DNA of 64,000 nt, from NCBI GenBank assembly GCA_937966215.1, contig CALCKK010000039.1, positions 4,452 to 68,451 of the forward strand, given 5' to 3'. The position numbers were made by a program, and so were the translations under genes. Each line of letters begins with the position of its first letter. Within the stretch, counting starts at the first letter, position 1. The notes beneath the pieces are model-generated. The model was not told where the DNA came from, ran no database searches, and saw only the letters and a list, made by a program, of their open reading frames with translations. The DNA comes from an uncultured Collinsella sp. GTDB taxonomy: Bacteria > Actinomycetota > Coriobacteriia > Coriobacteriales > Coriobacteriaceae. This document shows, one piece after another, positions 28,315 to 62,698 of this stretch.

Positions 28315-28359
28315 GCGCGGCGTTAGTACAATTCCGACGAGAGTTTCAGGAGGTCGAAC

Positions 28360-46263: not shown

Positions 46264-48297
46264 TTACGAGAGTTCACGCGCGGTCTCCTCTTCGATCTGG
46301 GCGGAAAGCTCCAGCCATTCGTCCTCGAGCTTGGGTAGCTCTTGCTTAAGGCCGTTATATTCCCCCAGCGCGGCGTTGAACTTATCCTGATCGGCATAAA
46401 GTTCTTCGCTCGCCATCAATTCCATAAGCTCGTCATAGCGGGCGCGCTTTTTGTCGAGCTCCGTCTCGATCTTCTTGAGCTGGTTACGCACGCCCTTGAG
46501 CTTTTTGTTGAGCGCAGCGCGGGCTTGGGCCTCGGCGCGCTTTTGCTCCTTGGTCTTTTTGCCCTCGGCAGGCTTGGGGGCGGCGACGGGGGTGTCGGCC
46601 TGGGCAGCGCTGGCCTTGGTGGACTTGGTCGTGGCCGGCGCGCTCTCCGTGGACGCCTCGGCGGCGGCGCGGGCCGCGAGGTCCTCACGCTTGTAGAGGT
46701 AGTAGTCGTAGTCGCCGTCGTAGACCGTGACCTTGCCGTCGCGAATGTCGATGATGCGGTTGGCCACGGCGCGCACCAGGTGCTCGTCGTGGCTGATCAG
46801 CACGATGGTGCCGGGGAAATTTTGCAGGGCGTTCTCGAGCATGTCCACCGAGTCGATGTCTAGGTGGTTGGTGGGCTCGTCCAGGCACAGGAGCGCCTCG
46901 GGTGCTACGAGCATCTTGGCGAGCGCCAGACGCGCCTTTTCGCCGCCGGAGAGGACGCGAACCTGCTTTTCGATTGCGTCGTTGTCGCTAAACAGGAAGG
47001 CGCCCAGCAGGCTGCGCTGCTGCGGCACGGTCCACTTGGGCGTGACGGTGTCAATCTCTTGCAGGACGGTATTGGACTCGGTCATGCCCTCGAGTGCGTG
47101 CTGGGCGTAGTAGGCTACGCCTACGTTGGTGCCCAGGTCCCGGGTGCCGGTGGTGGGCGGCTCCAGTCCGGCGATGATCTTCATGAGCGTGGACTTGCCG
47201 GCGCCGTTGGGGCCGACGAGCGCCACGTGCTCGCCGCGGTAGAGCTTGAGGTCGATATCGCTGTAGATGTGTTTGTTGCCGTAGGACTTGGAGACGCCCT
47301 CCAGGCCCACGACCATATCGCCGGAGCGCGGTGGGTCAGGGAACTTAAAGTCGATGTGCTTGTGGCCCTCGGGTAGGATGACAAGCTCCTTTTTGATCTG
47401 CTCGATCTTGCGGATGCGCTCCTGGGCCTGGGCTGCCTTGGTGGGCTTGTAGCGGAACTTGTCGACGAAGACCTGCATGTGGGCGATGTCGCGCTCCTGG
47501 GCGGCGCGCTTGGCGCGCATCTGCTCAAGGTTGTCCTCGCGCTGCTTGAGGTAGCTGCTGTAGTTGCCGGTGTAAGTGGTCACGCGACGATTTTCGAGTG
47601 CGGCGACGTGGTCGACGCAAGCGTCCATGAAGGCGCGGTCGTGGCTGACGATGAGGACGGCGCCGTCATAGTTGGCTATAAAGCCGCGCAGCCACTGGAC
47701 GCTTTCGAGGTCCAGGTGGTTAGTGGGCTCGTCCAGAAGCAGCAGGTCGGGATGGCGCAGGAAGAGCTTGGCGAGCGCGATGCGCATCTGCCAGCCGCCC
47801 GAGAACTCGGAGCACGGGCGCTCAAAGTCGGTGACCTTAAAGCCAAGGCCGGACAGGATCTTGCGGGCGTTGCTCTCGAGCTCGTAGCCGCCCAGGTGCT
47901 CAAAGCGGTCCTGGACCTGGCCGTACTCGTTAAGGAGCGCGTCAACGTCCTTGCCCTGTTCGGAGAGCTCAGTGATCTGGGCCTGCAGCTCGTTGGCGCG
48001 CTCGCCCATGCGGCGGATTTCCTTGGCGGCGGCCATGACCTCAGCGAGGATGGTGGTGTCCTTTTGTTCCAGATTAGTTTCCTGCTCTAGGTAGCCCACC
48101 TGGCAGTCCTTTGCGTACTGGACCTGGCCGGAGTCGGGACTGTCGATGCCCATGATGATTTTGAGCATGGTGGTTTTGCCGGCGCCGTTGGGGCCCACGA
48201 GCGCGAAGCGCTCGCCGGGGTTGATCTGGAAGGACGCGCCGCTAAAGAGGACGCGTGCGCCGAAGCTTTTTTCGATCTTGTCGACCAGGAGGATCAT
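46264..48297 (-). CDS. ABC-F family ATPase (translation-factor type, no TM domain)
   Basis: Two cassettes ([13 protein letters not shown] / LSGGWQMR; [13 protein letters not shown] / LSGGEKAR), an interdomain linker and a Lys/Ala/Glu-rich C-terminal coiled coil. Start [13 protein letters not shown] at ATG 48297. Confidence 0.93.
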
Positions 48298-48328
48298 GGT
48301 GCCGCCTTTGACCTTGTGTGCCAATATG

Positions 48329-48356
48329 AAAAAAGGCCCCAACTTGCGTTGGAGCC
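48329..48356 (-). terminator. Terminator downstream of tRNA-Ala copy A
   Basis: ggccccaac-ttgc-gttggagcc is preceded by aaaaaa on the plus strand, a U-run on the minus strand. The copy at 49151-49178 has a perfect stem. Confidence 0.65.
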
Positions 48357-48372
48357 TCATTCAATGCTCGGG

Positions 48373-48445
48373 TGGAGACGAGGGGGATCGAACCCCTGAC
48401 CTCTTGACTGCCAGTCAAGCGCTCTCCCAGCTGAGCTACGCCCCC
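48373..48445 (-). tRNA. tRNA-Ala (anticodon GGC), copy A
   Basis: The reverse complement GGGGGCGTAGCTCAGCTGGGAGAGCGCTTGACTGGCAGTCAAGAGGTCAGGGGTTCGATCCCCCTCGTCTCCA has the G3:U70 Ala identity pair. The anticodon loop is CU-GGC-AG. Confidence 0.92.
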
Positions 48446-48457
48446 GTGCGAAGAAGT

Positions 48458-48486
48458 ACTATACGGGAACTCGGACCACGATGCAA
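48458..48486 (-). promoter_or_regulatory. Candidate sigma70-type promoter of tRNA-Ala (repeated at 49280-49308)
   Basis: On the minus strand: TTGCAT, 17 nt, then TATAGT, with the -10 element ending 12 nt before the tRNA 5' end. Confidence 0.5.
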
Positions 48487-48635
48487 GGACAATTTTGGAA
48501 AAACTTTCCGGGGGCGCGGGCGCCGGAGTCCCGCGGGGCCGCGACGGCGGAGACCGGCGCCCGCGGGGCCGATGCGGGCGGGCGGCGCTGCCGCCGCCCG
48601 CCTATCAGGCTCCACTCCGGTCGCCCCCGGGATCC

Positions 48636-48799
48636 CCGCCACGAAACCGGCCCATCTACTACGTTTGGGCGACATCTCCCGACCATGGCGTCTCGGGCAG
48701 AAATAAAACCGCAGGTAGACGGCCTGCGGTTTTCGCGAAATACGGGGTATGGTCGAGGGGTCGGGGTTAAACGTAGTAGATGGGCCGGTTTCGTGGCGG
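48636..48799. repeat. 31-bp perfect inverted repeat enclosing about 100 bp with an internal terminator-like hairpin
   Basis: ccgccacgaaaccggcccatctactacgttt (48636-48666) pairs with aaacgtagtagatgggccggtttcgtggcgg (48769-48799). The internal hairpin aaccgcagg-tagacgg-cctgcggtt plus tt lies at 48707-48733. Confidence 0.85.
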
Positions 48800-48920
48800 C
48801 GGCATCGCAGGCAGCCGACCGAGGGCGTCCGGAAGTGAGCAAGCAGGCTATTTGCAAGTGAAAACTAATGCCATGAAAAAGAAAACAGGCCAGACATATT
48901 GCCTGACCTGTTGAAAAACC

Positions 48921-48996
48921 TGGTGGGCCCTCCGGGATTCGAACCCAGAACCCAGGGATTATGAGTCCCCTGCGCTAACCGTTGCGCCAAGAGCCC
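48921..48996 (-). tRNA. tRNA with CAT anticodon (elongator Met, or Ile2 if lysidinylated), CCA encoded
   Basis: The reverse complement GGGCTCTTGGCGCAACGGTTAGCGCAGGGGACTCATAATCCCTGGGTTCTGGGTTCGAATCCCGGAGGGCCCACCA has a G1-C72 pair, which argues against an initiator. Confidence 0.85.
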
Positions 48997-49086
48997 TTAT
49001 AAAGTGGCGCTTGCAGTTGGGGTGGCAGAACAGCCTCCAACGCTTTGAACCACGATGTGAAATACTACCATGCGCGCGGCACCCGT

Positions 49087-49119
49087 TCAACGCACGATCT
49101 TGTCGACCAGGAGGATCAT
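49087..49119 (-). pseudogene. Remnant of the ABC-F 5' end (10 codons) inside repeat copy B
   Basis: The minus strand reads ATG ATC CTC CTG GTC GAC AAG ATC GTG CGT TGA ([10 protein letters not shown]). The first 8 codons are identical to the start of the ABC-F gene at 48297. Confidence 0.8.
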
Positions 49120-49326
49120 GCTGCCGCCTTTGAGCTTGTGTGCCTATATGAAAAAAGGCTCCAACTTGCGTTGGAGCCTCATTCAATGCTCGGGTGGAGA
49201 CGAGGGGGATCGAACCCCTGACCTCTTGACTGCCAGTCAAGCGCTCTCCCAGCTGAGCTACGCCCCCGTGCGAAGAAGTACTATACGGGAACTCGGACCA
49301 CGATGCAAGGACAATTTTGGAAAATT
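49095..49326. repeat. Direct repeat copy B (232 bp)
   Basis: See copy A. Beyond 49326 only loose similarity to the region after 48504 remains (for example cgcaggtag...gaaat.c.gggtatgg at 48710 and 49494). Confidence 0.9.
49195..49267 (-). tRNA. tRNA-Ala (anticodon GGC), copy B
   Basis: Sequence identical to copy A at 48373-48445. Confidence 0.92.
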
Positions 49327-49634
49327 TCGCAGTCGCGGCGCGTTCCGCCATCCGCCCAACGGCCGTCTTGCCGGCGCCAGGCCCATTACCGGGGCCGACC
49401 GCGCCCCCGCCGACCCGGCGATTCCAAAACCATGCCGGTTTACGGGGCCAGGCCGGGAACCCCCGAGCATGCCGTAATCGGTAAAATCAAAATCGCAGGT
49501 AGGCGACTTGCGCATTCCGTGAAATGCAGGGTATGGACGGCCGGTCCGGGTCCAGCCCCGTAATCCGGCACAGTTTTGAAATGACATTAATTCACTAACA
49601 GGCAAACTAGGTAGTTCTAGCGCCTTGTCGCCGG

Positions 49635-50792
49635 CTAATTTCCGATTTCCAACCAGTTGCACAAAACATTTGCTCGCAGTCTCGTCTCGGCGCACTTCAT
49701 TGCCTCAGTTTTGACTTTATAGCGAATCCCTAAACGGTCGCAGACACTTCTGACTATGGTGTCTAGCTGCTTTGAATCGTTGAGCATATCGTGAGTCACC
49801 AGGAATACATCGAATCCCATGCTCTGCAACGCAGTCATGCGTTCCGCATCGTGGTCAAGTATTGCACCTGAACCATGAATGACTTCACCTTGGATTTCGA
49901 TAATTGCCCCTTTCATAAGAATCGGATTTACGATCACGATATCGCCGTAGCAGACCTTTTGACCTGCGATGCTTTGCGCCGATATGGAAAGAGGAGTTAA
50001 GTCGTTGGCATAAACGTTCGTGAAGCCAGCGCCGCCAAGACGCCGCGGACGGTTTAGAAGCAAGATTCCTGCAACCTCGAGCGGAGACGCAGCAATGCCG
50101 ATAACCTGCTGAGCGGCATCATAAAACTGCTTTCCCCACATTTGACTTTTGACCTTGTCGGCGAAACGATGCAGGTCGCTCAGCTCGATGAGCGGCTTTC
50201 TCATCCAGAGAGAAGTACCTTTGAGTTTCGTAACCTCTCTTCCATCTTCACGCTTGCTCGTTTGGCTATCATTATCTGGGTCCTTAACGGTTGCGCGGGC
50301 ATAAACTCGTTTCCAAGGAACCTCGTCTTCGCCTTCTCCAAGTTCGAACAGATCCTGCGTGCTGGAATTGCGATTCTCCTCTACCGCCATTTTTAACTGC
50401 ATTTCGGCAGCGGGAGCCGGCTCGAAAACAGAAAACCAACCGCAAAGTTCGTACATAGCCAGTACGAGATCTATTTGGGATACAAAGCGTGTCATAGTAA
50501 ATAACGTGTTAAGCGGATTGGTGACACAAAAGCCTAAATTAGTGTCGATTGTTGTGCCGGCATCCGATGCCCCTTCCCAGCGAATAGTAGAGCGCAATCC
50601 CGAGTGGTGATTACAACAACCTGGCGAAGTAACAGCGATAATTGGGGTCTTGAGGACTTCGGTTACAAAAGGGGCTTGGGATAGAGCTCGCCAGCCGTCT
50701 TCGGAGTTGGGCAGGCGCGGGTAGAGATTGCGCACCTGCGGTGGGCAGCGCCAATAGCGGAATGCAGTGTTTGCGCAGACGATATCGTCCAT
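49635..50792 (-). CDS. Hypothetical protein with C-terminal DUF559/Vsr-like endonuclease-fold domain
   Basis: The C-terminus GAIIEIQGEVIHGSGAILDHDAERMTALQSMGFDVFLVTHDML resembles the DUF559 pattern (hE.DG..H...D..R...L...G..V.R). The N-terminal 250 aa were not recognised. GC content is visibly lower than in the core genes. Confidence 0.45.
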   Translation of the reverse strand: MDDIVCANTAFRYWRCPPQVRNLYPRLPNSEDGWRALSQAPFVTEVLKTPIIAVTSPGCCNHHSGLRSTIRWEGASDAGTTIDTNLGFCVTNPLNTLFTMTRFVSQIDLVLAMYELCGWFSVFEPAPAAEMQLKMAVEENRNSSTQDLFELGEGEDEVPWKRVYARATVKDPDNDSQTSKREDGREVTKLKGTSLWMRKPLIELSDLHRFADKVKSQMWGKQFYDAAQQVIGIAASPLEVAGILLLNRPRRLGGAGFTNVYANDLTPLSISAQSIAGQKVCYGDIVIVNPILMKGAIIEIQGEVIHGSGAILDHDAERMTALQSMGFDVFLVTHDMLNDSKQLDTIVRSVCDRLGIRYKVKTEAMKCAETRLRANVLCNWLEIGN

Positions 50793-51161
50793 TTGCGCCT
50801 CCCCTGGTATCGGCCGTAGGCCGTGCGGATTGCGGGCAAGGTCGATTATCTACTGGCGCATCATGCGGGTAAGTACGGGTAGCTGACCAAACACTGACCA
50901 AAAGCTTGACGCAATCTATTGAAAATCCGCCATAGACATGAACGTGCTGGTACGAGCTGTGAGCCAGTGGTCTCTGTCTCCACAATTGCGCATAGATTGC
51001 GCAGAGAATTCAATGAATGAACGCAGATGCACTTTTCAAAACGTGCGATGACGACAACTAAAGTGAACTGCATAACATACAACGCTTTAGGTAAATTCGG
51101 TTCGATTTGGCATCATATGAAAAAAGGCCAGAGGCTTAACACCTCTGACCTGCGCTTTTGA

Positions 51162-51236
51162 TGGTGGGCGATACAAGATTCGAACTTGTGACCCCATCCG
51201 TGTGAAGGATATGCTCTACCCCTGAGCCAATCGCCC
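51162..51236 (-). tRNA. tRNA-Val (anticodon CAC), CCA encoded
   Basis: The reverse complement is GGGCGATTGGCTCAGGGGTAGAGCATATCCTTCACACGGATGGGGTCACAAGTTCGAATCTTGTATCGCCCACCA. A terminator-like hairpin ggccagagg-cttaaca-cctctgacc lies downstream at 51126-51150. Confidence 0.9.
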
Positions 51237-51380
51237 GTCGCCTTTCGGCAAAAGAGATACTAACATAGCCGCGCGTGGTTTACCAAGAACTTTTTGCCCT
51301 CGATTTTAAATTCGTGGGTGCTAGCCAAGCCAAAACAATCAAAGCAATCTGAAAAACCGCAGCTAAACCACCCTTTATCG

Positions 51381-52184
51381 TTAAATCCACGAGGTCTCGG
51401 GACGGCAGATAAGTCGCGCGTTGTTGTAGGCCATGTCGAGCGTGAGGCAGGTGCGTGCGGCGTAGAAACCGTCCTCGCGCTGGATGGTCAGCGCCAGCAC
51501 GGGCTTGTCGCCGGTTAGGCACAGCGGCAAGAGCAGCTGGATCCGGCCGCCGTAGAACTGCGGCACGGCGAGTGTGTAGTTGGCGGCGGCGCGGCGGGCG
51601 GCCTCGACGACGGCACCCTCAAAGGCGCGGCGCAGCAGCAGCGAGTTACCCTCCCCCATCAGGCTGGCAGGAATGCGCGTCAGGTTCTCCTCGTCGCCCA
51701 GAATGTGATCGATGTTGGAGCGGATGGGAAGGCGGTGGTCAAAGACCAGCTCGGAAGGGTCCTCGGCAAAGCGTACGCGGCACGGCAGGTACTCAAACGA
51801 GACTAGCATGGGGTCGCTTTCCTTAAAGGAGCCCTTCAAAAACCAGTGCTGGTGCGCGTCGGGCTTGGTGTTGGGCTCAAACAGGCCGTAGGTGGTCTCG
51901 TAGCGGCGCGTGTGCAGGCCGGTGTTGAATAGGCAGCGGACGTCGTCGAACACCAGCGGCAAGTTGGACGGGGCGGTCTGGTCCACGTCGCGCTCGGTCA
52001 GGAACACCGCGCGGCTAAACGAAAACGACAGGTAGTTTTTGAGGATGCGGTTGCCGGGGCCCCAGTCCTCGGGGTCGGCGAGGTCGACCAGGCGGTCGTA
52101 GCAGGGCTCGGGGCAAAACGCGAAGTCGTACACATTGCTGCACAGGGTGCTGGGGATCTCCGTGTGGTGTCCAATCCATTTCAT
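51381..52184 (-). CDS. DUF3825-like protein
   Basis: ILKNYLSFSF, FNTGL, SNIDHILGDEENLTRIP, NYTLAVPQFYGGRIQLLLPL and LDMAYNNARLI match my recollection of DUF3825 conserved blocks. No database check was possible. Confidence 0.45.
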   Translation of the reverse strand: MKWIGHHTEIPSTLCSNVYDFAFCPEPCYDRLVDLADPEDWGPGNRILKNYLSFSFSRAVFLTERDVDQTAPSNLPLVFDDVRCLFNTGLHTRRYETTYGLFEPNTKPDAHQHWFLKGSFKESDPMLVSFEYLPCRVRFAEDPSELVFDHRLPIRSNIDHILGDEENLTRIPASLMGEGNSLLLRRAFEGAVVEAARRAAANYTLAVPQFYGGRIQLLLPLCLTGDKPVLALTIQREDGFYAARTCLTLDMAYNNARLICRPETSWI

Positions 52185-52520
52185 AACTGGAGTGCGGATC
52201 CTTAGATTCTATACGCGCGACAGGTCGCCGGCTCGCCACAAAGCAATTGCGACCTTGCTTTTTGACGAGCTTGTCGCGGGAGTGGCTTTCGAAAACGAGG
52301 TCGCGGATCCAAGCGAAGTGCGGAGTAAAACCAAGGCCCGTCGACCAGACCCCGGTTTTACGCTTTTGCGACATGCGTTTTTTAAATAGAGGATGTGTTG
52401 GGGCTGCTATGGCTGCCATGTAATTTAAAAACAAAAGACCGCTCAACAGATAGGGGTGCCCCGGCATTGGCCGGGGCACCCCGTCTCGGAAGCCATATTG
52501 CTTACCTTTAGATCACTTGA

Positions 52521-53306
52521 CTATTTACGAAAAGCAAGGAAAACCGCCGCTGCGATGCATATGATGCCTATCACGAGCGGAAGCCACGCCTTATCTTCTT
52601 TATCCTTAACAAGAAAAGCCTCAATTGCGGACGCAAGGACCAGGAATCCGCCGATAATCAGCAGATCAAGCGCAACGAAACGGACGGTCGTTATATCGGA
52701 AGAAACCCCTCCGGCATTAACGTTCACAAGCGTGAAGATCGCGGCAAAAATGGCGAAGAGAGCCAGAACATTGCCATAGATACGAGACTCGATGTTGGCG
52801 ACTTCGTTCTTTTTATCCTCGACCTTTTTGAGCTCTCCGGCATAGACGTCGGAATAGTCGGCAAGCCCATTAAAATTGAGCTCATCGGAAAAGGCTCCAT
52901 GGTAAGGATGAGCAACCGTGCCTTCGACGCGCTGGAATGCGACTTGCGCGATACCCTTAGATTTATCAAGGGCAATCGTGTTGCCGCTTACGTTTGTAAC
53001 ACGGTAGAACAGCCGTGTTCCATGACCGGGGAAATATAGCGGCGCATCCAAAGAAAGCCCCTGGCGAATGCGCGAATTGCGTAAAAGAACGCTAGCGGTC
53101 AAATCGTTGGGCAGCGCGATACATTCAACGCAAGAGACAAAAGTCGAGTCTCCAGGGCCAAGTTCGACCTCGGATTGCTTGCTTTCGTTAACGTAGAACC
53201 CGTCAGTGCGCAAGTCATACGTAACCTGTCCGATGTTCGAAGCATCGGCATTGAGCAGCACCTTGCTGTCGATGAGCTCCTGAATCTTAGTATCGCTCAA
53301 GTACAT
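52521..53306 (-). CDS. dCTP deaminase/dUTPase-fold domain fused to a C-terminal multi-TM region
   Basis: The N-terminal 170 aa or so align by eye with Dcd (MYLSDTKIQELI..., ELGPGDSTFVSCVECIALPNDL, LLRNSRIRQGL, FPGHGTRLFYRVTN, IAQVAF). A coiled segment and 3 hydrophobic helices follow (VLALFAIFAAIFTLV, FVALDLLIIGGFLVLASAI, LPLVIGIICIAAAVFLAF). The ATG at 53306 follows aaggaag. Confidence 0.7.
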   Translation of the reverse strand: MYLSDTKIQELIDSKVLLNADASNIGQVTYDLRTDGFYVNESKQSEVELGPGDSTFVSCVECIALPNDLTASVLLRNSRIRQGLSLDAPLYFPGHGTRLFYRVTNVSGNTIALDKSKGIAQVAFQRVEGTVAHPYHGAFSDELNFNGLADYSDVYAGELKKVEDKKNEVANIESRIYGNVLALFAIFAAIFTLVNVNAGGVSSDITTVRFVALDLLIIGGFLVLASAIEAFLVKDKEDKAWLPLVIGIICIAAAVFLAFRK

Positions 53307-53430
53307 ATGAATCACTTCCTTAGGACAACGAGTATAGCACTGAGGTATTGCGCTGGCGGCTGTCCCCAAAGGGGACATAGGGGAAGAAGTTTGAACACAT
53401 ATTTAAGGCTCGGACACGTGGTTGCGATTC

Positions 53431-54309
53431 CTATTCCTCGTCCGGAAGTAGAAACCTGGTATACATCTGAAAGACGGCAAGAAGAAATAGGTCTTCCATG
53501 GTCTCGATTCTCTCGCCATCGAAACCGCCGGGGCACCCGTAGTCCTTATCGTTGGCCTCGTCACCAGAGCCGTAGGTCGCCGCGTAGAATGCAACGGTTA
53601 ACGCGAATCGGCAGGCCTCAATCTCGGAGCTCGATTCGAATTGATATTCATTTTTCAGATAGGAAATGGGGGCGAAGGAAGCGACCCTGGATTCGAAGGC
53701 CTCGGAAAGGACCTTACGGATAAGGTAATCGTACCCCGGGGAACAGCTATCAGGGGGCAGAAAGGAAGAGTCCAGGCACTCAGAAAGAAGGTCAACCCGA
53801 GGTTCTGGCAGCCTCTCCCCCGCATACCTTTCGAGGCTGCGAAGCACGTATTTCCCATCATCATAAAGAACGGGTTCATCTTCTGGGAAGCGGTCACGGA
53901 GGGCGGCTTCGACTGCGGTGATGCAACGGACGAACAGGTCATCCTCTCCCCTGACCCGCAAGTCAAGATTGCAGTATTTAAGAATTAGATTCTGTACCTC
54001 CGGCACGAGACAACAAAAGTTCCGGTACATCTCACGTGAATAATAAAAAAGGTCATTGTGCATGGCGGCGACAGCGCAAAGCGGAATTAATCCTCTGTCT
54101 GAGTAATACTTCGAGATAAACTCGATTGCCTGCGCCTTATTCCCTTCGGCGTGTCTGCGTTCGTCTCTTTCGTCCTGGCGACGCTCGAATTCCTCCATGC
54201 GCTTGCTCTGGCAACACTGTTTCTTGCCAATGATGGCTGTCACAATTAAAGAGATAAACGCGCATATTAATTCAGCCAATTCGTTCCACTTCACAAGAAA
54301 CCCCCACAA
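53431..54309 (-). CDS. Membrane-anchored hypothetical protein
   Basis: N-terminal TM helix (LAELICAFISLIVTAIIG), a charged helix (EEFERRQDERDERRH) and a 230-aa domain with no recognisable motif. It lies directly upstream of the Dcd-TM gene on the same strand. Confidence 0.5.
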   Translation of the reverse strand: MWGFLVKWNELAELICAFISLIVTAIIGKKQCCQSKRMEEFERRQDERDERRHAEGNKAQAIEFISKYYSDRGLIPLCAVAAMHNDLFYYSREMYRNFCCLVPEVQNLILKYCNLDLRVRGEDDLFVRCITAVEAALRDRFPEDEPVLYDDGKYVLRSLERYAGERLPEPRVDLLSECLDSSFLPPDSCSPGYDYLIRKVLSEAFESRVASFAPISYLKNEYQFESSSEIEACRFALTVAFYAATYGSGDEANDKDYGCPGGFDGERIETMEDLFLLAVFQMYTRFLLPDEE

Positions 54310-54735: not shown

Positions 54736-55875
54736 TCAACAACGACATGCGGCAGCTAGAAGCATTGTACCAAGCAGGAAAAGCGTCACGGAAGCTGCGA
54801 CCCAGTTGTTGTCGCCGGTCTTGGGGAGTAACGCAGTTGTCGCGGTGGCGGTTGCGGTCTTGGGCTTATAGGACGTGGACACCGTGGTCTTGGTTACTGT
54901 CGTTGTTGTCTTGGTTGTCGCGGCCGCGGGCTTCAGCGAGGGATTTGCCGTGGGTACCGTGGTGGGCTCTCCGGTAGCGGGGTTGGCATTGGCGGGAGAC
55001 TTGTCCGTGCTATCGCCCAGCACGTCGTGTCCATCGGTCTCCCCCGCCGGAGGCGTGGCCACATCGGGCTCAACCACCACATGCGGTGCCACCGCACCGG
55101 AGGCGTCCACCACGCCGCTAGCACCAAAAGCCCCACCAGCAGGCGTCACAAACCGCGCAGATACAAGTGACCCGCCCGTGCTCGCAAGGCCGCCGTCGGC
55201 ACCGGTCGCATCGAGCCACGAGGCGTCGACGGAAAGCCGACAGCCGGCCGCACCGTCGCCAAGGCCCGCATCCTGCAGACACACGCCGTAGGCGCGCACG
55301 CCCGCTCCGGACCCGGCGCCCGCGGCGACGAAGCGCCCGCCGCCGCGCACGGCCATATCGCCTGCGATCACGCCGGCGACCGCCTCGTCCGTAATATCGG
55401 CCCCATCCGCCCGCGCATCGACGGTGCATCCGTCCACCACGAGCGCCTGCGAGACGTGGATCCCGCACTGTGAGCCCGTCGCCGTCAGGGTCCCGGTACC
55501 GCGAAGCGTCAGGTTGCCCCACACCTCCATGCCGCACAGCGTGATGTCCGCATCGGGCGCATGCGACTCCGTCACGGAGTTTTGCCCGGCAAGCGTCAGC
55601 ACCAGGTCGCCTTCGGCGCCGATGGCCTCCCCCGCGTAGCCGTTAAGCTCCAGGTGGTCGGCATCGGTCCAGGCCCAGCCGGGGCCCGACGCGCCCGGCT
55701 CGTAGTACGTCTCGCCCGCGATGATGAGGCTCTCCGCGCCCGCGGCATAAGAAGGCCCGCCCAGCAAAACGCATAGGCAGGCCATGGCAGCGATCGCGAT
55801 GTGATGACGGCTGGTGTGGGACTCGGCAGCAAACATACCCGCTCCGATCTTCGCAGGAGCCAATAGAATGTGCAC
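54736..55875 (-). CDS. LPXTG cell-wall-anchored surface protein
   Basis: Signal peptide (IAIAAMACLCVLLGGPSYAAGA), a Gly/Ala/Asp-rich beta-like region, a Thr/Lys/Pro stalk and a C-terminal LPKTG motif with a hydrophobic helix and tail. The start is possibly Met14. Confidence 0.8.
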   Translation of the reverse strand: MHILLAPAKIGAGMFAAESHTSRHHIAIAAMACLCVLLGGPSYAAGAESLIIAGETYYEPGASGPGWAWTDADHLELNGYAGEAIGAEGDLVLTLAGQNSVTESHAPDADITLCGMEVWGNLTLRGTGTLTATGSQCGIHVSQALVVDGCTVDARADGADITDEAVAGVIAGDMAVRGGGRFVAAGAGSGAGVRAYGVCLQDAGLGDGAAGCRLSVDASWLDATGADGGLASTGGSLVSARFVTPAGGAFGASGVVDASGAVAPHVVVEPDVATPPAGETDGHDVLGDSTDKSPANANPATGEPTTVPTANPSLKPAAATTKTTTTVTKTTVSTSYKPKTATATATTALLPKTGDNNWVAASVTLFLLGTMLLAAACRC

Positions 55876-56077: not shown

Positions 56078-57871
56078 CTACTTTGACAATTGCTTAAAAT
56101 CCTGAGCTGATGATTCCGCAGCCTCAACCATTGTTAACCAATCGTCTAATTTTGGAGGACGAACGGTCCATAAAGTATCTCGGCCCTTCAGCACATCTTC
56201 ATTTGGTGGAACCATTGCACATATAGCTTTGTTTCCGTACTGATCATCTGGGCTTAAGACTAGCTTACGTTCAGAATCTTTTATTTGGTCTGCTGAGCAT
56301 TCTGAAGAACCAATTACTAGAGTAGTCTGTGCAAAACCGCAGAATGCCTCTTTGCTTCCAAGCTTAACAGCTATAGGCTTAATCCAGCGCGCTAAAGAGG
56401 GGTATTCAAAGTTTGGGACTTCATCCCCTTCTAGATTAAACCCATGTGATTCCCAACTATATACAATCGTTTCGCCATCGAGCAGTCTTGCTGCATCTTT
56501 AATATTTGCGACTTCTCCTTTAGTGATTTTAAAATAATCAGGGAAAGGCATTTCGCCGTCCGCAGCCCTGTTAATAGTTTCTAACGCAACCGCAAGACCG
56601 TATATGGCATTTACTTCGGCAACCACATCATCCCTGAGGCCGAGATAAAAATAGAGAGCACTCGTGCCATCGATTCGAAGCTCCACTTTTTCATCTTCGG
56701 CTTCGCTTAAGAATCGATAAGTTCTTACTACATCTCGAGAACGCTTATTGAGTAATTTGTTAAATGAAAACTCATAGTTAATCGTTCCGCCGGACTGGCT
56801 GCCGATCCATTTAAAGCTCAATCGAAAGGTTTCCGTCGCGTCATGGGCAGAAAAGAAAGCTCCCTTCGTTCCATGAGTGGCCTTATCAACTATTAGATGT
56901 AGTTCACCACAGCCTTCCCAGAACAACGAAGCCGACCTTATGCAAGTTGATGTGGGCAGATCAAGGGTCTTAATGATTCCCTTTCGAATACCATCGCAGG
57001 AACGTCCAACGGGCAATTGGTAGGCCTGATCAATCACTTCCGCCGGCAACGAAGTGAAGGGCATACCATACTCGATAAAATTTTTGGCCTGTTCCTTCTC
57101 ATCGTCAGTCCCTGCAGTGATTTTCAGTGAAAACCTTAATGGATGCAGCATTGAAGCAATTGGCGTCTTTTCAATTACGTCGATTGCGATTCGACCTGCT
57201 CCCGGGGTTACTAGAATTTGGGACATAACAACGCCAGGGGCACATGCGCAAAAATCATCGCGTTTGTCGTATTCTGAGAGCACGTGAACTGAATATGCAT
57301 AGTAAGGGTCCAGTTTATCAAGATGGGAACATAGATCGCGCAGCCTATTTTCGAGAATGGCTGGATCGCTGCAGTCTGGAAGATTGGCCATGGAGAGCAG
57401 TTTCGCAGCATACTCAGAGACCTCTTCTTTTCCATTTGAAAAGTAATAATCAATTACTTCTGGGTGTTTGGACGCCCAGCCATCAACTCTTGAAAGGCCA
57501 TCCCAGACGAATTTTGTACCAGAAGTTTCAACCAGCTCCTTAGCCCATCTTAGATTCTCATTTGTGGGATCTAATGGCATAACAAGATGCCAGCTATTTA
57601 TTTTTACATGCAAATCGACTGTGGTTGCCGATAATTCCTGCCACGAATTTTCAATCTGAGCTTTCTGGCCGTTTTTTAGATTTTCAGCAAATTTCTTAAT
57701 TTGATATATGTCGACCGTTTCAGCATCAAGGTAAACGATAAGGTCAATTCCTCCATCGCCCCTAGAAGGTCGAATTTTAATGGCGTCTCGCTCTTCAAGA
57801 GAAATAAACGTCGCAAGAACTGACTCGATATCCTCACCTGAATATCGAGTCCAAGGGATACGTCCAGTCAT
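56078..57871 (-). CDS. Large protein with N-terminal PD-(D/E)xK (Mrr-like) nuclease motif and an unrecognised C-terminal 450 aa
   Basis: The N-terminus WTRYSGEDIESVLATFISL...RPSRGDGGIDLIVY...VDIYQIKKF matches the Mrr-cat pattern (GDGGID ... Q-x-K). No P-loop was found. It lies 41 nt downstream of the RT gene on the same strand in AT-rich DNA. Confidence 0.6.
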   Translation of the reverse strand: MTGRIPWTRYSGEDIESVLATFISLEERDAIKIRPSRGDGGIDLIVYLDAETVDIYQIKKFAENLKNGQKAQIENSWQELSATTVDLHVKINSWHLVMPLDPTNENLRWAKELVETSGTKFVWDGLSRVDGWASKHPEVIDYYFSNGKEEVSEYAAKLLSMANLPDCSDPAILENRLRDLCSHLDKLDPYYAYSVHVLSEYDKRDDFCACAPGVVMSQILVTPGAGRIAIDVIEKTPIASMLHPLRFSLKITAGTDDEKEQAKNFIEYGMPFTSLPAEVIDQAYQLPVGRSCDGIRKGIIKTLDLPTSTCIRSASLFWEGCGELHLIVDKATHGTKGAFFSAHDATETFRLSFKWIGSQSGGTINYEFSFNKLLNKRSRDVVRTYRFLSEAEDEKVELRIDGTSALYFYLGLRDDVVAEVNAIYGLAVALETINRAADGEMPFPDYFKITKGEVANIKDAARLLDGETIVYSWESHGFNLEGDEVPNFEYPSLARWIKPIAVKLGSKEAFCGFAQTTLVIGSSECSADQIKDSERKLVLSPDDQYGNKAICAMVPPNEDVLKGRDTLWTVRPPKLDDWLTMVEAAESSAQDFKQLSK

Positions 57872-57911: not shown

Positions 57912-59459
57912 CTAATTTAAATATTCGGGTTTAATGAACTTGATTCCCCTCTTTTTAATGGCCCTCCACTCATCAGACGGTAACCACTCTTTTGATCGAA
58001 TATGATAGAGAAAAAGCCACATCTCTTCAAATTCACGCCCTTCTATTGGGAATTCCTTAGCATGCTTTGTAAGACGATCAAGCAAATATCCATCGCCAAA
58101 ATGCTTGGCGTAAAGATAGACGAATAAGTATAAAAGACAGTCATTAGCCCTTTTGATATCTTCAAAATCGGGCATATCAACCTTAAAATCGAACTTAATT
58201 GCGTAGTAAAGGCCGTAGCAAACCGAAAGGTGATCACCGTGATTAAGACAATCAGAGATAATAACCTTTGAGAGACACTCAATATAATCTTTGTCCATAC
58301 TCAAAGGCTCAATTATTGCTTTCTCGAATGACGGCAGCAAATAAGGAAATACGATTGCAAGGTGCATAGCATAGTCCCGAAAATAGGCTTTTGCCGAAGG
58401 CTTTAGTGAGCGCGATGCGAGCATTTTGAACGCGTATAGCAGTATTGAGGCATTATTCTGGTAAGAAGGAAGAAGACTGGTCGCGTATTCCAAAAAAGAT
58501 GACACATCTTTGTAATCAAGCGGGTCCGATTTATTAGGTTCATTGCGCCTTAATGAATTTACCCAGCCATTAGAAAGCGCTATGGGTAATTCTAGTATTT
58601 CAGTTTTCTTCTGATTCAGTGTTAGACGAAACTTGGACAGCTCTTCCTGCAACGAGATGATGAACTGCTCGGCCTCGTATCGCGATGCGACATAACAATT
58701 GTAGTCATCGATATTTCGAATAAATCTATAGCCTTTGTTAAATAAACTAGCATCGATAACTGTGAGAATTAATTCTGAGACAACATTGGAAGCGTGTGGA
58801 CCGATAAGTAATCCGTGGGTTTCGCCGTCGCACGCCTTTTGAAGTAGTCCGTCAATTTCGTTCGCCCAACCGCCCCGACGGGAACTTCTATTTTGCTTTG
58901 CGTTATCCCTTCCCATAATCGCCCAAGGCAAAGAATGCGTGTATATACTCGGAAAACAAGTGGAGATGTCGCATTTCACGAGGTATTTTTTACCAATAAG
59001 AATAGTTGGTTCAGGGTTAGGATCAGTCATCCAGTTTGAATAGTTCATTTGGAATATTGCTTGCGAATCGGGAATCACACGAGGATGAATCCTGCTAACT
59101 GCATAAGGCTGCGGTAATGTGTATTTTTGAACGTGACGGACTATATCGCCCCAATTGTCGGCTAAACCGCGGACGAGTCGCTCGTAGGTGAAGGGGGTTG
59201 GTATGCCGAATTTTCGATATTGTCCATTGCACCGAATGTAATTAAATCTAATCCACTCTGAGCGTGAATCGTTGCTTGCCATTTTGCGATTATTGCAATA
59301 CGTAACAAATTGTTCTGCCGAAAAAATCGGCGGTAGTTTGTCGGCAAACCATCCGGCAAGCATTAGTCCGTTATAAACAGCATCTTCGGATAACTCTTGC
59401 CAATATGCCCAGTAAGGCTTGGAAGGAGCAAAGAGCTTGTCACATAATTGAGATTCCAT
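57912..59459 (-). CDS. Reverse transcriptase of the UG/Abi (defence-associated) type, helical C-terminal half
   Basis: The RT palm motifs occur in order: LVKCDISTCFPSIYTHSLPWA (A), GLLIGPHASNVVSELIL (B), FIRNIDDYNCYV (C, with DD) and LTLNQKKTEIL (D/E). The C-terminal 200 aa or so are helical and contain an R-x4-H match (FRDYAMH). There is no maturase or endonuclease domain. Confidence 0.8.
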   Translation of the reverse strand: MESQLCDKLFAPSKPYWAYWQELSEDAVYNGLMLAGWFADKLPPIFSAEQFVTYCNNRKMASNDSRSEWIRFNYIRCNGQYRKFGIPTPFTYERLVRGLADNWGDIVRHVQKYTLPQPYAVSRIHPRVIPDSQAIFQMNYSNWMTDPNPEPTILIGKKYLVKCDISTCFPSIYTHSLPWAIMGRDNAKQNRSSRRGGWANEIDGLLQKACDGETHGLLIGPHASNVVSELILTVIDASLFNKGYRFIRNIDDYNCYVASRYEAEQFIISLQEELSKFRLTLNQKKTEILELPIALSNGWVNSLRRNEPNKSDPLDYKDVSSFLEYATSLLPSYQNNASILLYAFKMLASRSLKPSAKAYFRDYAMHLAIVFPYLLPSFEKAIIEPLSMDKDYIECLSKVIISDCLNHGDHLSVCYGLYYAIKFDFKVDMPDFEDIKRANDCLLYLFVYLYAKHFGDGYLLDRLTKHAKEFPIEGREFEEMWLFLYHIRSKEWLPSDEWRAIKKRGIKFIKPEYLN

Positions 59460-59979: not shown

Positions 59980-60639
59980 TCAGCGCCATATAGGACCTGC
60001 TAGTTGCATTTGGCGCTGAATTGCACCTCTCTTGTTTAGCTGGCATAGAGTTTTGTATGATGCGGCAAGAGTGTTTTCTCTTTCAAAGAGATCTTGCCGT
60101 TGATCGGGCTCATCTAACCTTTCAGAAGCCTGTTCAAGCGTCCATTGATATTCCCTTGCATTCTTGAGCATCTTATTAAATAGAATCTGATACTGATACA
60201 TTGAAAACAAAAGGGATTGATAATCTTCTATGAATTCGGCAATTGCCTTTCCACTCTTTCCCTTGAAGCAAAATCTCGCCTCCATGGCGAGCGATCTCAT
60301 TTCATCAAGCTTTAAATGCAATTTAAGTTGAAGGTCGGCATCTAACACCTTATTAATTGAGGCTGAGATTGATTGCAGGTACGTGGTGTTAGTCAGCCAT
60401 ACAAATAGTAGGTCGATTGCCATTTGCGGTTCGTCGTCATGTTCCAAGTTCTTCGCGTTTTTTGCGTAAACGCTCATGAGATTATCGACGGTTATCCATA
60501 TATTTAAACGTCGATTGAATAGAGACTGTTTATTGCTGAGACGAGCCTGGTAACAAGAAATGAGCAACGCGATGATTGCCACAATCGCTGAGATGTACTC
60601 AGGTAAATTTGTTAGGTTCATTGTCTCCTCCGCAGCCAA
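59980..60639 (-). CDS. Single-pass membrane protein with helical cytoplasmic domain, unknown function
   Basis: TM helix YISAIVAIIALLISCY near the N-terminus, with the remaining 180 aa predicted helical. It lies in AT-rich DNA between the SMODS operon and the RT module. Confidence 0.5.
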   Translation of the reverse strand: MAAEETMNLTNLPEYISAIVAIIALLISCYQARLSNKQSLFNRRLNIWITVDNLMSVYAKNAKNLEHDDEPQMAIDLLFVWLTNTTYLQSISASINKVLDADLQLKLHLKLDEMRSLAMEARFCFKGKSGKAIAEFIEDYQSLLFSMYQYQILFNKMLKNAREYQWTLEQASERLDEPDQRQDLFERENTLAASYKTLCQLNKRGAIQRQMQLAGPIWR

Positions 60640-60814
60640 AAATCAATTGGCAATACTACAATTATCGATCTGCATTCAGGATTCTCTGACAATAGGAATT
60701 ACGTTACTGAGGTCATTGATCGTAGTAGAATATCCGATTGATTTGAAAGTCGTTCCACATCGTAGCTTATGCTGTTAGTTGATTGGTTATATGGGCTGTT
60801 TAGGGGATAATTCC

Positions 60815-61366
60815 CTAATTGATATCCTTTCCTTTAAACGACGTGGATAGCATCATCAGAAGAACGTCGTTGACCATTCGTCCCCTGAAGTTGCAAAGCG
60901 CGGTAAATGAAATCATACTAAGCAGTTTCATGCCCTGCTCATCGATCCTTCCTTTTTCAGGAGGGCAGTAGACGATTAATCCGCACTGGGGCTTTTTACC
61001 TCGGACAACAGCATTGAATTCTTCGTTGCTTAGATATTCATGAACAATAATCATTAAAAGCGCTGATTGAGCTTCATCAAGGTGTTTGTTGGTGACATGC
61101 TGAATATTTCTTGTTTTAATAAGGCCGGAATTGACCAAATCTTTTCGAATGTCATTAAAATCATCAAGTCCTGCGATAATAGCGATTTTCTTTGCGAATA
61201 ACGCTAGCCCGAATCTGATCAGGGCTTGAGTAATGCCAGCAAAAGATCCCGCGGCAACTACCAACAGTGCGATGAACCCAAATACTGAGCAGATAGCAGT
61301 TATGCAGTCACGGGCGCTATAAAAGATTTGTAGGAGCTGTAGTATTATTTCCAACAATTTATCCAT
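60815..61366 (-). CDS. 2TM protein with small alpha/beta C-terminal domain (candidate effector of the SMODS enzyme)
   Basis: Two hydrophobic helices (ITAICSVFGFIALLVVAAGSFAGI and LIRFGLALFAKKIAIIAGL) precede a domain of about 110 aa with alternating strand/helix character. The start lies 10 nt after the SMODS gene stop. Confidence 0.55.
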   Translation of the reverse strand: MDKLLEIILQLLQIFYSARDCITAICSVFGFIALLVVAAGSFAGITQALIRFGLALFAKKIAIIAGLDDFNDIRKDLVNSGLIKTRNIQHVTNKHLDEAQSALLMIIVHEYLSNEEFNAVVRGKKPQCGLIVYCPPEKGRIDEQGMKLLSMISFTALCNFRGRMVNDVLLMMLSTSFKGKDIN

Positions 61367-61375
61367 ATCAATTAT

Positions 61376-62698
61376 CTACTCCACATTAATGAAAAACGGA
61401 CGGGTCCATCGTACGCAATAGCCTTTACGCACAACAAAGCACTGCACGATATGTTTTCCGGTATAGGCTGTTTCTTCTCGTCTTGAAGTTTTCCCTTCGT
61501 TGGGAGCTTCAAAGCCCCCACGCTGACAGCATCGCATAGCCTCTTCACCGGTATTGGTGATCTGCCATCTTACACGCCCGTCTTTAATTGGGCTGTATGT
61601 GACTTTATATATCACTGAGGACCCTTTCGGAACCGCCGGCCCATCATTTGGAAGATTGATTTGTTTGCCCGAAGGAAGAGTGGCAGTTGCAGTGATGGTT
61701 GCATTTGGTTTTTGAGATTGCAAGGGATACTTCAGCTTTTGTCTATGGGTAACGGACAACGCGCGTTCCTGTGCAATTCGCCTCGTTCCAGCTGCGTAAG
61801 ATCTCGATTCATTCCCTGCTGGGAAATTAATGCCAAGAATGGTTCTCCAAATATCGTTGCCAGTGCCTTTTTCTGCAAGAAGATCAAGTTGTTCGATCAG
61901 TCTATTTGAAAACTCAAGGAAGTCGTTGTGTTTGTACTTTTCCGCTAGGTTATTTTCGCAAAATGCGGGATCTTCGATAAATGGAGTGTTGCCAGAACTT
62001 AAATCTTCTGAGTACGCTTCTGACAAATTGGCCATTGTTTGCATTACACGCTCTTCAATCGTGAGGTGCGGTTCTGGTAAATTATCAGCAATCATTTTCT
62101 CAAGAGTAATTCCCTTTGGATATTTGACATTCGATGGACAGTTTTCTCTTCGCCACCATTTAAAAATTTTCACCAAAGGCTTATATGCATTTTCATACCC
62201 TTGATTAACTTCTGTTGTCCAAGAAATATGTTTCTTCGGATCAGTTCGCTTCCAAGTGCCTTCCTTAGATGATCCAATATTAAGAAAACCGTTTTCATCT
62301 CTGACCAAGGGCACAACATCAAGATGGAAACTTGCCATATCTATACCGACAGAATGATTTTGAATAGTCGTTTTTTGGTAACAGCTGCGTAGTTTGAGGG
62401 CCTTTTCAAGCTCATTCAATACAAAAGTCGGAGAATCGTTTGTTGAACGACTAGTTTCGATGACAACGTCAATATCGCAGCAATCCGAATTCTTTTTTGG
62501 ACGAATGAACGTTTGCTTAGCGTAAGATCCTGACAAATAGCTGTGAACATAAATATGTTTATAGCTCTCACAAGTTTTCAAGTGATTCCTAAGATTCTGG
62601 TGAAGTCTGCTTGCTTCATCGATAGTAGATTTACTTGGGTTGATATCTTTTAGAAAAGACTCGAAGTCGGTACTGTTTGCCACAATTCTCCAATTCAA
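61376..62698 (-). CDS. SMODS-family nucleotidyltransferase fused to an AGS-C sensor domain
   Basis: Pol-beta NTase signature LSGSYAKQTFIRPKKNSDCCDIDVVI (GS ... DxD) plus a third acidic residue in HLDVVPL. The C-terminus VRWQITNTGEEAMRCCQRGGFEAP...ETAYTGKHIVQCFVVRKGYCV resembles the AGS-C pattern (assigned from memory). Confidence 0.75.
   Translation of the reverse strand: MNWRIVANSTDFESFLKDINPSKSTIDEASRLHQNLRNHLKTCESYKHIYVHSYLSGSYAKQTFIRPKKNSDCCDIDVVIETSRSTNDSPTFVLNELEKALKLRSCYQKTTIQNHSVGIDMASFHLDVVPLVRDENGFLNIGSSKEGTWKRTDPKKHISWTTEVNQGYENAYKPLVKIFKWWRRENCPSNVKYPKGITLEKMIADNLPEPHLTIEERVMQTMANLSEAYSEDLSSGNTPFIEDPAFCENNLAEKYKHNDFLEFSNRLIEQLDLLAEKGTGNDIWRTILGINFPAGNESRSYAAGTRRIAQERALSVTHRQKLKYPLQSQKPNATITATATLPSGKQINLPNDGPAVPKGSSVIYKVTYSPIKDGRVRWQITNTGEEAMRCCQRGGFEAPNEGKTSRREETAYTGKHIVQCFVVRKGYCVRWTRPFFINVE

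Follow-up and report, generated by a model that had tools for sequence, protein, structure and literature searches.

A membrane-tethered dCTP deaminase-like protein without the catalytic residues defines a conserved gene family of Collinsella, other gut Actinomycetota and prophages

The subject of this work is a gene of an uncultured Collinsella sp., here called gene A, that lies on the minus strand in the low-GC island at 48-64 kb of a 64,000-nucleotide stretch of contig CALCKK010000039.1 (hereafter the window). It encodes a protein of 261 amino acids made of a dCTP deaminase-like domain, a charged stalk and three transmembrane (TM) helices, and it belongs to an undescribed and unannotated family of single genes, found in prophages as well as in defence islands. 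The protein is a structural relative of the dCTP deaminases (Dcd) and DCD-DUT enzymes that fails three of their defining tests, namely the catalytic Glu, the active-site Asp and the equivalog score. Tentatively, and as a possibility that we favour rather than one we would insist upon, we propose that it is a non-catalytic nucleotide sensor that gates a membrane-disrupting effector within a single protein.

Gene A and its upstream neighbour, gene B, had been singled out as a pair in a sequence-only reading of the window, and both open reading frames (ORFs) are present on the minus strand where that reading had placed them. The mechanical ORF of gene A covers 52521-53378 (285 amino acids), and the real start is almost certainly the ATG at 53306, since a Shine-Dalgarno sequence (AGGAAG) precedes it 8 nt upstream and more than 100 homologs measure 259-262 amino acids and begin with M-[YL]-L-S-D. 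The whole locus is 100% identical to that of Collinsella sp. OM04-5. A 772-amino acid fusion form in five loci (L106-L110) proved to be an artefact of ORF extension, as its upstream 510 amino acids look like a wrong frame and the real start is M513.

The similarity of the N-terminal domain to dCTP deaminases, first noticed by eye, is borne out by Pfam PF22769 ('dCTP deaminase-like'; 7.8e-9, 36.2 bits against a gathering cutoff of 27 bits) and by phrog_1663 ('dCTP deaminase', 5e-13). The model TIGR02274 (dCTP_deam) matches at 1.4e-13, yet with 50.9 bits it stays under the equivalog cutoff of 92.8 bits, and the dUTPase model NF002598 gives 22.1 bits for a cutoff of 130. An AlphaFold2 (AF2) monomer model, built from a 24-sequence family alignment, reached a predicted local distance difference test (pLDDT) score of 83 overall and >90 across residues 1-130. 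Its best Foldseek matches in the Protein Data Bank (PDB) were the DCD-DUT enzymes 4a6a, 4xjc and 2qlp and the archaeal dUTPases 8y1w and 9ln0 (E ~5e-12, probability 1.0), with a TM-score of 0.81 and a root-mean-square deviation (rmsd) of 1.9 Å for 8y1w. Across the DCD-DUT structures of M. tuberculosis (2qxx/4a6a), B. halodurans (4xjc) and M. jannaschii (1ogh) and the archaeal dUTPases of Thermococcus (8y1w) and P45 (9ln0), the fold is shared at TM-scores of 0.6-0.8, rmsd of 1.9-3.6 Å and 22-27% identity. None of the viral structure models in BFVD matched the protein beyond this N-terminal domain.

What gene A has in common with these enzymes is the R-x-S-x-x-R-x-G-L phosphate motif, the PG loop and the PY-G arm. 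The first two blocks had been recognised from the letters and do align with the enzymes (R76-L84 and P93-G94). The phosphate-binding R-S-S-x-x-R-x-G-L of Dcd has its counterpart in RNSRIRQGL, where the family shows no variation at N77, S78, R79, R81, G83 and L84, and the C-terminal lid or arm motif PYxGxY in PYHGAFSDE, with Y135, G137, F139 and E142 invariant and a low-confidence linker (142-151) coming next. The difference resides between them. In HMMER alignments made with single sequences as well as with profiles, YFPGHGTRLFYRVTN falls over DPGFNGQITLELFN of 4xjc and over IDPGFSGHITLELSN of the M. tuberculosis enzyme (2qxx/4a6a), so that Phe92 stands in place of the DPG-loop Asp and Arg102 in place of the deaminase Glu, the same placement that had been made by eye. 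As judged from the titles of PDB mutant entries, the catalytic Glu is the residue mutated in 2j4q and 2v9x (E138, E. coli) and in 2hxd and 3gf0 (E145, M. jannaschii), and lies in the 'TLEL' of the M. tuberculosis and B. halodurans enzymes. dUTPase chemistry needs the Asp of the (V/I)DPG loop, which in dUTPase-type sites makes contact with the 3'-OH of the sugar and with the catalytic water. Even the Glu-less archaeal dUTPases, 8y1w among them, retain this Asp; gene A has neither residue. In the 24-sequence alignment P93, G94, H95, T97 and N105 are invariant and R102 nearly so. The replacement of both Glu and Asp supports the view that the domain would be unable to deaminate or hydrolyse through the known mechanism, and, with the phosphate-binding motif kept, it is a reasonable reading that it binds a nucleotide without canonical catalysis.

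These replacements are not a one-off of this genome. A search with a profile of the N-terminal domain alone against 1.84 billion representatives returned 104 clusters at E<1e-30 and 304 at E<1e-10. The best 150 of the 50%-identity cluster representatives share the signature [RK]NSxRxG...Y-[FQHYRL]-PGH-x-T...R...N-x-S...YG[FY]E, in which the former Asp position is variable (F/Q/H/Y/R/L) and never acidic, the catalytic-Glu position is Arg in nearly all, and H95, T97 and R102 are nearly invariant. As the substituted residues are themselves held invariant, gene A represents a conserved family and not a decayed enzyme. Among 26 intact Collinsella orthologs the ratio of nonsynonymous to synonymous substitution rates (dN/dS) was 0.064 for the N-terminal domain, 0.085 for the stalk and 0.127 for the TM part, and gene A is thus under strong purifying selection. 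Its homologs are annotated solely as 'hypothetical'.

The charged segment proposed for the C-terminal part is present as a helix in the AF2 model, and the three hydrophobic helices after it are predicted alike by Kyte-Doolittle profiles and by AF2; the solved DCD-DUT and dUTPase relatives that were compared have neither. Three C-terminal hydrophobic segments are also found in 58 of the 74 family representatives that have at least 245 amino acids and a complete N-terminal domain. The stalk is a K/E-rich amphipathic helix with a conserved hydrophobic seam (154/155, 159, 162, 169, 172 and 176). TM1 is the best conserved of the three TM helices, its polar residues Y177, N179, T192, N195 and N197 being invariant or nearly so, and TM2 conserves D/N214, L215, G219 and F221. 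A K/R-rich loop between TM2 and TM3, and a weak PG_binding_1-like tail past TM3 in the relative P0369 (18.9 bits, under the cutoff), are consistent with a topology with the N-terminus in and the C-terminus out. Models of the SAVED-2TM and 2TM effectors from PADLOC matched the TM part only weakly (E 0.009-0.035).

Conservation of this sort invites another explanation, in which the near-invariant His95, Thr97 and Arg102 form a new catalytic centre, for instance of some other nucleotide hydrolase or transferase, and the TM helices are a mere tether. The three residues are indeed conserved in the way catalytic residues are, next to a phosphate motif that was kept, but we know of no precedent for such a centre in the DCD/dUTPase fold, and the position of the water-activating Asp is left free to vary. 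Furthermore, a passive anchor would not need the conserved polar residues of TM1 and TM2, nor a stalk and TM part as strongly constrained as they are (dN/dS 0.085-0.13). A new enzyme is, on this balance, quite improbable.

Position-specific, recurrent truncations set the two modules apart and amount to a natural experiment. In-frame stops interrupt gene A in 10 of ~71 evaluable Collinsella genomes, and truncated alleles make up about 15% of the genome loci and 11% of the metagenome loci (Table 1). The nonsense changes inspected at the nucleotide level were Y151 (TAT to TAA), K160 (AAA to TAA), K161 (AAG to TAG) and E173 (GAG to TAG); in L080 the sequence is replaced after codon 166, and metagenome contigs added stops at 166 and 177 and two later stops on contigs of very low coverage. 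The truncation codons 151-177 correspond to window ~52776-52856, between the domain and TM1. No stop was found in codons 1-149, though 62% of all one-step paths to a nonsense codon lie in the N-terminal domain; the probability of finding none of 8 in this domain is 4e-4 and that of at least 6 of 8 in the stalk is 9e-4, in a test whose window was defined post hoc, along domain boundaries. The TM codons downstream of the truncating stops remain stop-free, and the truncated Collinsella alleles all come from one allele clade. In the family as a whole, the N-terminal domain is complete in 118 representatives, and 30 of these are forms of 140-180 amino acids that end in the stalk; they are scattered among the long forms, with a long form as nearest relative in 23 of the 30, and the density of endings in the stalk is 3.3 times that of the next 64 residues. 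The TM module is, in short, repeatedly discarded while the ORF of the N-terminal domain is spared, which is what would be expected if the TM part were costly or toxic and the domain useful or at least harmless.

Gene A is moreover an autonomous one-gene cassette, with its own promoter-like region and terminator. The 85 bp upstream of its ATG are conserved in 7 of 7 aligned locus types, irrespective of the upstream gene, and comprise an invariant palindrome, GTCCCCTTTGGGGAC, ~55 nt upstream of the ATG, followed by an extended -10-like element, TGCTATACT, kept in all locus variants; the predicted transcription start of gene A would be near 53324. On the other side, a terminator-like hairpin with a 13-bp stem (12 GC pairs) lies 39 nt past the stop codon, and analogous hairpins stand directly 3' of A homologs in three prophage lineages (L006, L126, L130). 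The palindrome could be the operator for some regulator, or a small terminator serving the upstream genes. Metatranscriptome contigs overlap parts of genes A and B at a depth of 2-8, which is compatible with transcription, though DNA carry-over could also account for it. Short ORFs of 72-73 amino acids downstream of A in L126, L127, L130 and L132 share no mutual homology, so there is no conserved small partner on this side.

Gene B had been put forward as the partner of gene A, the two forming a system together. Its description stood in part: the product has the N-terminal anchor, as its one hydrophobic segment, and no match in Pfam, NCBIfam, PADLOC or PHROG, and its length is 287 amino acids instead of the 292 first given. 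It is Cys-rich, and AF2 modelled it at a pLDDT of 38, too low to be of use, from a shallow alignment of 9 sequences at >=87% identity; a variant in L056 has 73%. In the window the two genes share a strand, 124 nt separate the end of B from A, no terminator is predicted in this gap, and the arrangement recurs in L010, L056, L074 and four metagenome contigs. These cases are few, however: B stands directly upstream of A in just 4 of ~72 Collinsella genome loci (L009, L010, L056, L074) and in 4 of the 63 metagenome contigs with enough upstream sequence, from a metagenome scan that returned Collinsella-type loci only and also served the allele statistics. Besides, the commonest allele of gene B (P0135; 844 index blocks) occupies the same slot after the LPXTG gene with A absent and an unrelated 158-amino acid protein next, and no B relative was seen beside any A homolog at 37-56% identity or in the viral contigs. 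With no conserved partner at hand, a two-gene system is effectively refuted by co-occurrence, and we regard it as very improbable. As gene A is autonomous and keeps its upstream 85 bp irrespective of B, gene B is an independent cassette of the same hotspot. The 158-amino acid gene that follows B in L089 had seemed ToxN/AbiQ-like by eye; it had no Pfam match, and BLASTP against bona fide ToxN aligned 28 residues at 2e-5, so that it is possibly ToxN-like at most.

The gene is mobile. In four prophage lineages the A homolog is the last gene ahead of the terminase, preceded by the replication module or by a phrog_36 regulator. Homologs occur on 30 IMG/VR contigs, and among the genes near them are those for recombinases of the serine and tyrosine types, SIR2_2, SLATT_1/3, ThsB_TIR, NYN and Peptidase_M78; integrases, too, are among the neighbours of the family; in one locus the homolog lies beside SIR2_2 and a helix-turn-helix (HTH) protein, and in L100 a ToxN toxin is immediately upstream. 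From the prophage sites one could also picture a membrane protein that serves the phage in lytic growth, coupling nucleotide status to lysis timing, depolarisation or competitor exclusion, with the Collinsella copy as a domesticated prophage remnant. The co-orientation with the flanking phage genes, the place at the early/late boundary, where the gene is the last one ahead of a terminator and in two lineages comes right behind phrog_36-type regulators, and the presence in viral contigs, with a holin and endolysin-like pair nearby at one viral locus, would all fit; in addition, staphylococcal phages carry dut at an equivalent position, and Dut proteins moonlight in signalling. We find this service to the phage unlikely, given that the position differs between phages and that many sites are non-phage, as for cargo genes, that tblastn at 1e-5 found no match in 50,697 deposited phage genomes (INPHARED), and that the Collinsella locus is chromosomal, strongly conserved and has no phage genes nearby. 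Holins, moreover, are small TM proteins (<~150 amino acids) beside an endolysin, whereas gene A encodes 261 amino acids with a cytoplasmic domain of 150 and lies, in the four prophage lineages, between the replication and packaging modules, with holin and endolysin-like neighbours at the one viral locus only.

A second group of contexts is formed by glycan loci. In Bifidobacterium exopolysaccharide (EPS) clusters the homolog lies between EpsG/PS_pyruv_trans/GT2 genes and Wzz/DUF4012 (L085, L133) or after DUF4012, LMWPc and Wzz (L127); in Olsenella it is near LytR_cpsA_psr and a sortase (L088); in L001 it adjoins an NAD-dependent epimerase/dehydratase; and in L136 a divergent member, P0386, shares 47 bp with the 3' end of the preceding GT2 gene in a NeuB/CTP_transf_3/GtrA (CMP-sugar) cluster. 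Such placement in EPS and nonulosonic-acid clusters could be that of a passenger in hypervariable loci or could reveal a true envelope link, where the domain would bind a pyrimidine nucleotide-sugar, or released UDP, dTDP or CMP, and the membrane protein would regulate or assist the synthesis of exopolysaccharide or wall polymers, the phage copies being lysogenic-conversion genes that alter the receptor. Apart from these loci, the LPXTG surface protein near gene A in the window and the extracytoplasmic tails of P0373 and P0369, the latter with its weak PG_binding_1 likeness, would agree with such a role. EPS loci are, however, hypervariable and rich in insertion sequences, and the gene may be a passenger in L001 and L127, being flanked by transposases in both; an operonic look is seen in L136 only, with its divergent architecture. 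Conversion genes usually adjoin attP or the integrase, which is not the place the gene takes in the four prophage lineages, and its neighbours elsewhere are SIR2, SLATT, TIR and ToxN genes. A biosynthetic helper would also not be expected to lose its TM part alone, by recurrent nonsense. An envelope-glycan role seems to us, all in all, a minor though real prospect.

Some relatives show the Arg-for-Glu domain joined to other C-termini: to HicB_lk_antitox in P0334 (37 bits), to a weakly TIR/NDT-like region in P0302 (PADLOC CBASS TIR effector 9.6e-5; Rcl/DNPH1 0.13), and to a long low-complexity region with one TM helix in P0351; the C-terminal domains of P0302 and P0386 have no Pfam match. The same domain with differing C-termini draws the pattern of a putative sensor module with exchangeable effectors. 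P0302 belongs to a four-gene array on a relaxase-bearing element (L134/L135; Table 1), a candidate multi-gene conflict system that uses the same sensor domain.

Several known systems help to place gene A. The anti-phage dCTP deaminase and dGTPase defences reportedly described by Tal and co-workers in 2022 are active, soluble enzymes said to deplete nucleotides. With the dCTP deaminases among them gene A shares a pyrimidine-nucleotide enzyme fold, a single-gene organisation and residence in defence islands; it differs from them in its membrane module, in the loss of the catalytic residues and in having no PADLOC match for the domain. Judging from the residues present, nucleotide depletion cannot be its mechanism. 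By hypothesis, its logic is rather that of the sensor-TM effectors SAVED-2TM and Cap14/15 of the cyclic oligonucleotide-based antiphage signalling systems (CBASS), PycTM of Pycsar, Cam1 and the CARF-TM protein of type II Panoptes (PMC13577387), in which a cytoplasmic nucleotide-binding domain joined to 2-4 TM helices kills or arrests the cell, and the C-terminal multi-TM module required for it is present. We do not claim membership of the CBASS, Pycsar, type III CRISPR or Panoptes effectors for gene A, whose sensor is DCD-like and not a SAVED, CARF or cNMP-binding domain. In the Collinsella, prophage and other contexts examined no cyclase or synthase adjoins A, the SMODS gene of the window being 8 kb off, beyond DRT4; for want of a conserved synthase, any ligand would have to be drawn from the nucleotides of the host or the phage. 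With some reserve, we take gene A for a possible ligand-gated membrane effector whose sensor is of a new kind. Non-catalytic reuse of the dUTPase-superfamily fold in virus-host conflict is known from the herpesvirus dUTPase-related proteins and the signalling Duts of staphylococcal phages, and betaherpesvirus UL72-type proteins appeared among the BFVD structure matches; these belong to the Dut branch and not to DCD, are soluble without a membrane module, and are related to gene A by fold only. An analogy of logic alone can be drawn with P2X receptors if gene A is trimeric, with nucleotide sites at the interfaces and few TM helices per subunit; there is no homology, the ligand domain is cytoplasmic and not extracellular, and channel activity is hypothetical for gene A.

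DCD/dUTPase enzymes are trimeric, and their C-terminal arm closes over the bound nucleotide. In the proposed sensor-effector, the cytoplasmic N-terminal domain would presumably form such a trimer and hold a pyrimidine (deoxy)nucleotide, without turnover, through the phosphate motif and a remodelled base and sugar pocket (His95, Thr97, Arg102). Binding or loss of the ligand would order the arm (residues 134-142), and the amphipathic stalk (152-175) would relay this ordering to the TM helices, three in each subunit, where the polar residues N179, T192, N195, N197 and D/N214 might form the lining of a pore or make the membrane unstable. Once phage replication disturbs the nucleotide pool, abortive infection or superinfection exclusion would follow. 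A bolder version, which we rate as a long shot, has a trimeric channel or disruptor gated by a (deoxy)pyrimidine nucleotide via the dead DCD domain, reading the dNTP pool or a modified nucleotide specific to the phage and needing no synthase of a second messenger, while the stalk-truncated alleles would supply a soluble N-terminal domain as sponge, decoy or dominant-negative regulator of full-length copies borne by prophages.

Several points weigh against the sensor-effector proposal. Trimerisation and coupling are pure inference, and without the sugar-contacting Asp the pocket might take no deoxynucleotide at all. No PADLOC defence model matched the domain at E 0.1 or better, and no publication on the family was found in the literature. 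A substantial share of the non-phage contexts are glycan loci (L085, L133, L127, L136), which fit an envelope role as well as passenger status. The synteny in >70 Collinsella species looks more like that of a domesticated genus-level gene than of a mobile defence gene, and co-orientation with lytic genes in prophages means that gene A might serve the phage itself. To these is added the post hoc window of the truncation test.

The surroundings of gene A in the window are those of a defence island, the context that the sequence-only reading had called for, with DRT4 and a SMODS+AGS_C system here and toxin-antitoxin cassettes in sister genomes. The order is tRNA-Ala, tRNA-Met, tRNA-Ala, tRNA-Val, DUF3825, A, B, the LPXTG protein, a 597-amino acid protein, DRT4, and SMODS+AGS_C with proteins of two and one TM helices. 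Across ~72 Collinsella species genomes the surroundings of gene A are syntenic, in the order LPXTG protein, a variable stretch, A, a second variable stretch, DUF3825, 385-amino acid protein, tRNAs, ABC-F. In the other loci the LPXTG gene is the direct neighbour of A, at 150-200 bp, or different genes lie between, such as those for a 196-amino acid protein with two TM helices and a 174-amino acid protein in L047, and the gap between A and DUF3825 holds DUF3990 with HTH, Fic/Doc and other cassettes in sister genomes. The DUF3825 and 385-amino acid proteins (49635-52184, minus strand) are the conserved far border of this variable slot in ~70 Collinsella species. Among the conserved genes of the locus, that for the LPXTG protein varies most; its identity between species is 62-91% versus 94-98% for DUF3825 and ABC-F, which suggests diversifying pressure on it as a surface antigen or phage receptor. 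The 597-amino acid protein directly after DRT4 may be a DRT4-associated partner, since the pair recurs upstream of A in L052 and L075. The genes at 59980-62698 resemble a SMODS operon or one of CBASS type, in which the effectors would be membrane proteins and have no Pfam-recognised effector domain. At the island edge, tRNA-Ala(GGC) is found in two copies (48371-48445 and 49193-49267) with near-identical flanks and tRNA-Met between (region 48146-49480), and a spurious ORF peptide is identical in both; this is a local duplication, and possibly a former integration site. Elsewhere in the window, a genuine dut is indeed located at 16360, a canonical trimeric dut (16360-16803) with all five dUTPase motifs, and GC content rises to 0.72-0.735 at 26001-30000 compared with 0.55-0.65 in the surrounding core genome.

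Table 1. Features of gene A, its flanks and its neighbourhood (window coordinates unless a locus is given)
Feature	Position	Strand	Remarks
Gene A, 261-aa DCD-like-3TM protein	52521..53306	-	true coding sequence
N-terminal DCD/dUTPase-fold domain, residues 1-142	52881..53306	-	Pfam PF22769, AF2, Foldseek
RNSRIRQGL, residues 76-84	53055..53081	-	phosphate-binding motif
YFPGHGTRLFYRVTN, residues 91-105	52992..53036	-	PG loop and catalytic-Glu position
PYHGAFSDE, residues 134-142	52881..52907	-	lid/arm motif
Stalk helix, residues 152-175	52782..52853	-	AF2, alignments
TM1, residues 176-198	52713..52781	-	Kyte-Doolittle and AF2 helix
TM2, residues 209-233	52608..52682	-	
TM3, residues 242-260	52527..52583	-	Kyte-Doolittle and AF2 helix
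Conserved 5' region of the A cassette	53315..53376	-	palindrome, -10-like element, Shine-Dalgarno; aligned locus types
Palindrome GTCCCCTTTGGGGAC	53362-53376	-	
Extended -10-like TGCTATACT	53331-53339	-	
Shine-Dalgarno AGGAAG	53315-53320	-	
Terminator-like hairpin	52453..52482	-	
Gene B, 287-aa N-terminally anchored Cys-rich protein	53431..54294	-	GTG start as in homologs; ORF list end 54309
385-aa protein	49635-50792	-	weak REase_MTES_1575 match, 0.029
DUF3825 protein	51381-52184	-	2.5e-55; also phrog_11623
LPXTG-type surface protein	54736-55875	-	motif LPKTGD, C-terminal TM helix
597-aa protein	56078-57871	-	N-terminus weakly matches LmuA models, 1.3e-4
DRT4 reverse transcriptase	57912-59459	-	PADLOC 3.9e-186
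219-aa protein, one TM helix	59980-60639	-	after the 183-aa protein
183-aa protein, two TM helices	60815-61366	-	after the SMODS gene
SMODS+AGS_C nucleotidyltransferase	61376-62698	-	PF18144 1.7e-35, PF18134 4e-20
Four-gene array, relaxase-bearing element	L134/L135 711-6930		1205-aa protein, SLATT_1/DUF4231, DUF4062, P0302
Truncated A orthologs, genomes	L022, L027-L030, L053, L059, L065, L067, L072, L080		
Truncated A orthologs, metagenome	L146, L151-L153, L157, L170, L179, L200, L204		

If the proposal is right, gene A would represent a new type of sensor in bacterial immunity, a metabolic nucleotide enzyme turned receptor, and a possible route to sensing infection directly from the nucleotide pool, a step that is poorly understood in many systems of abortive infection. 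Members of the family are common among the Actinomycetota of the human gut (Collinsella, Bifidobacterium, Olsenella) and in the prophages of these bacteria, in which defence systems have hardly been tested. Even if a role in defence should prove wrong, a conserved, strongly selected and membrane-tethered pseudo-Dcd found in EPS loci and prophages has an unannotated function that is worth assigning.

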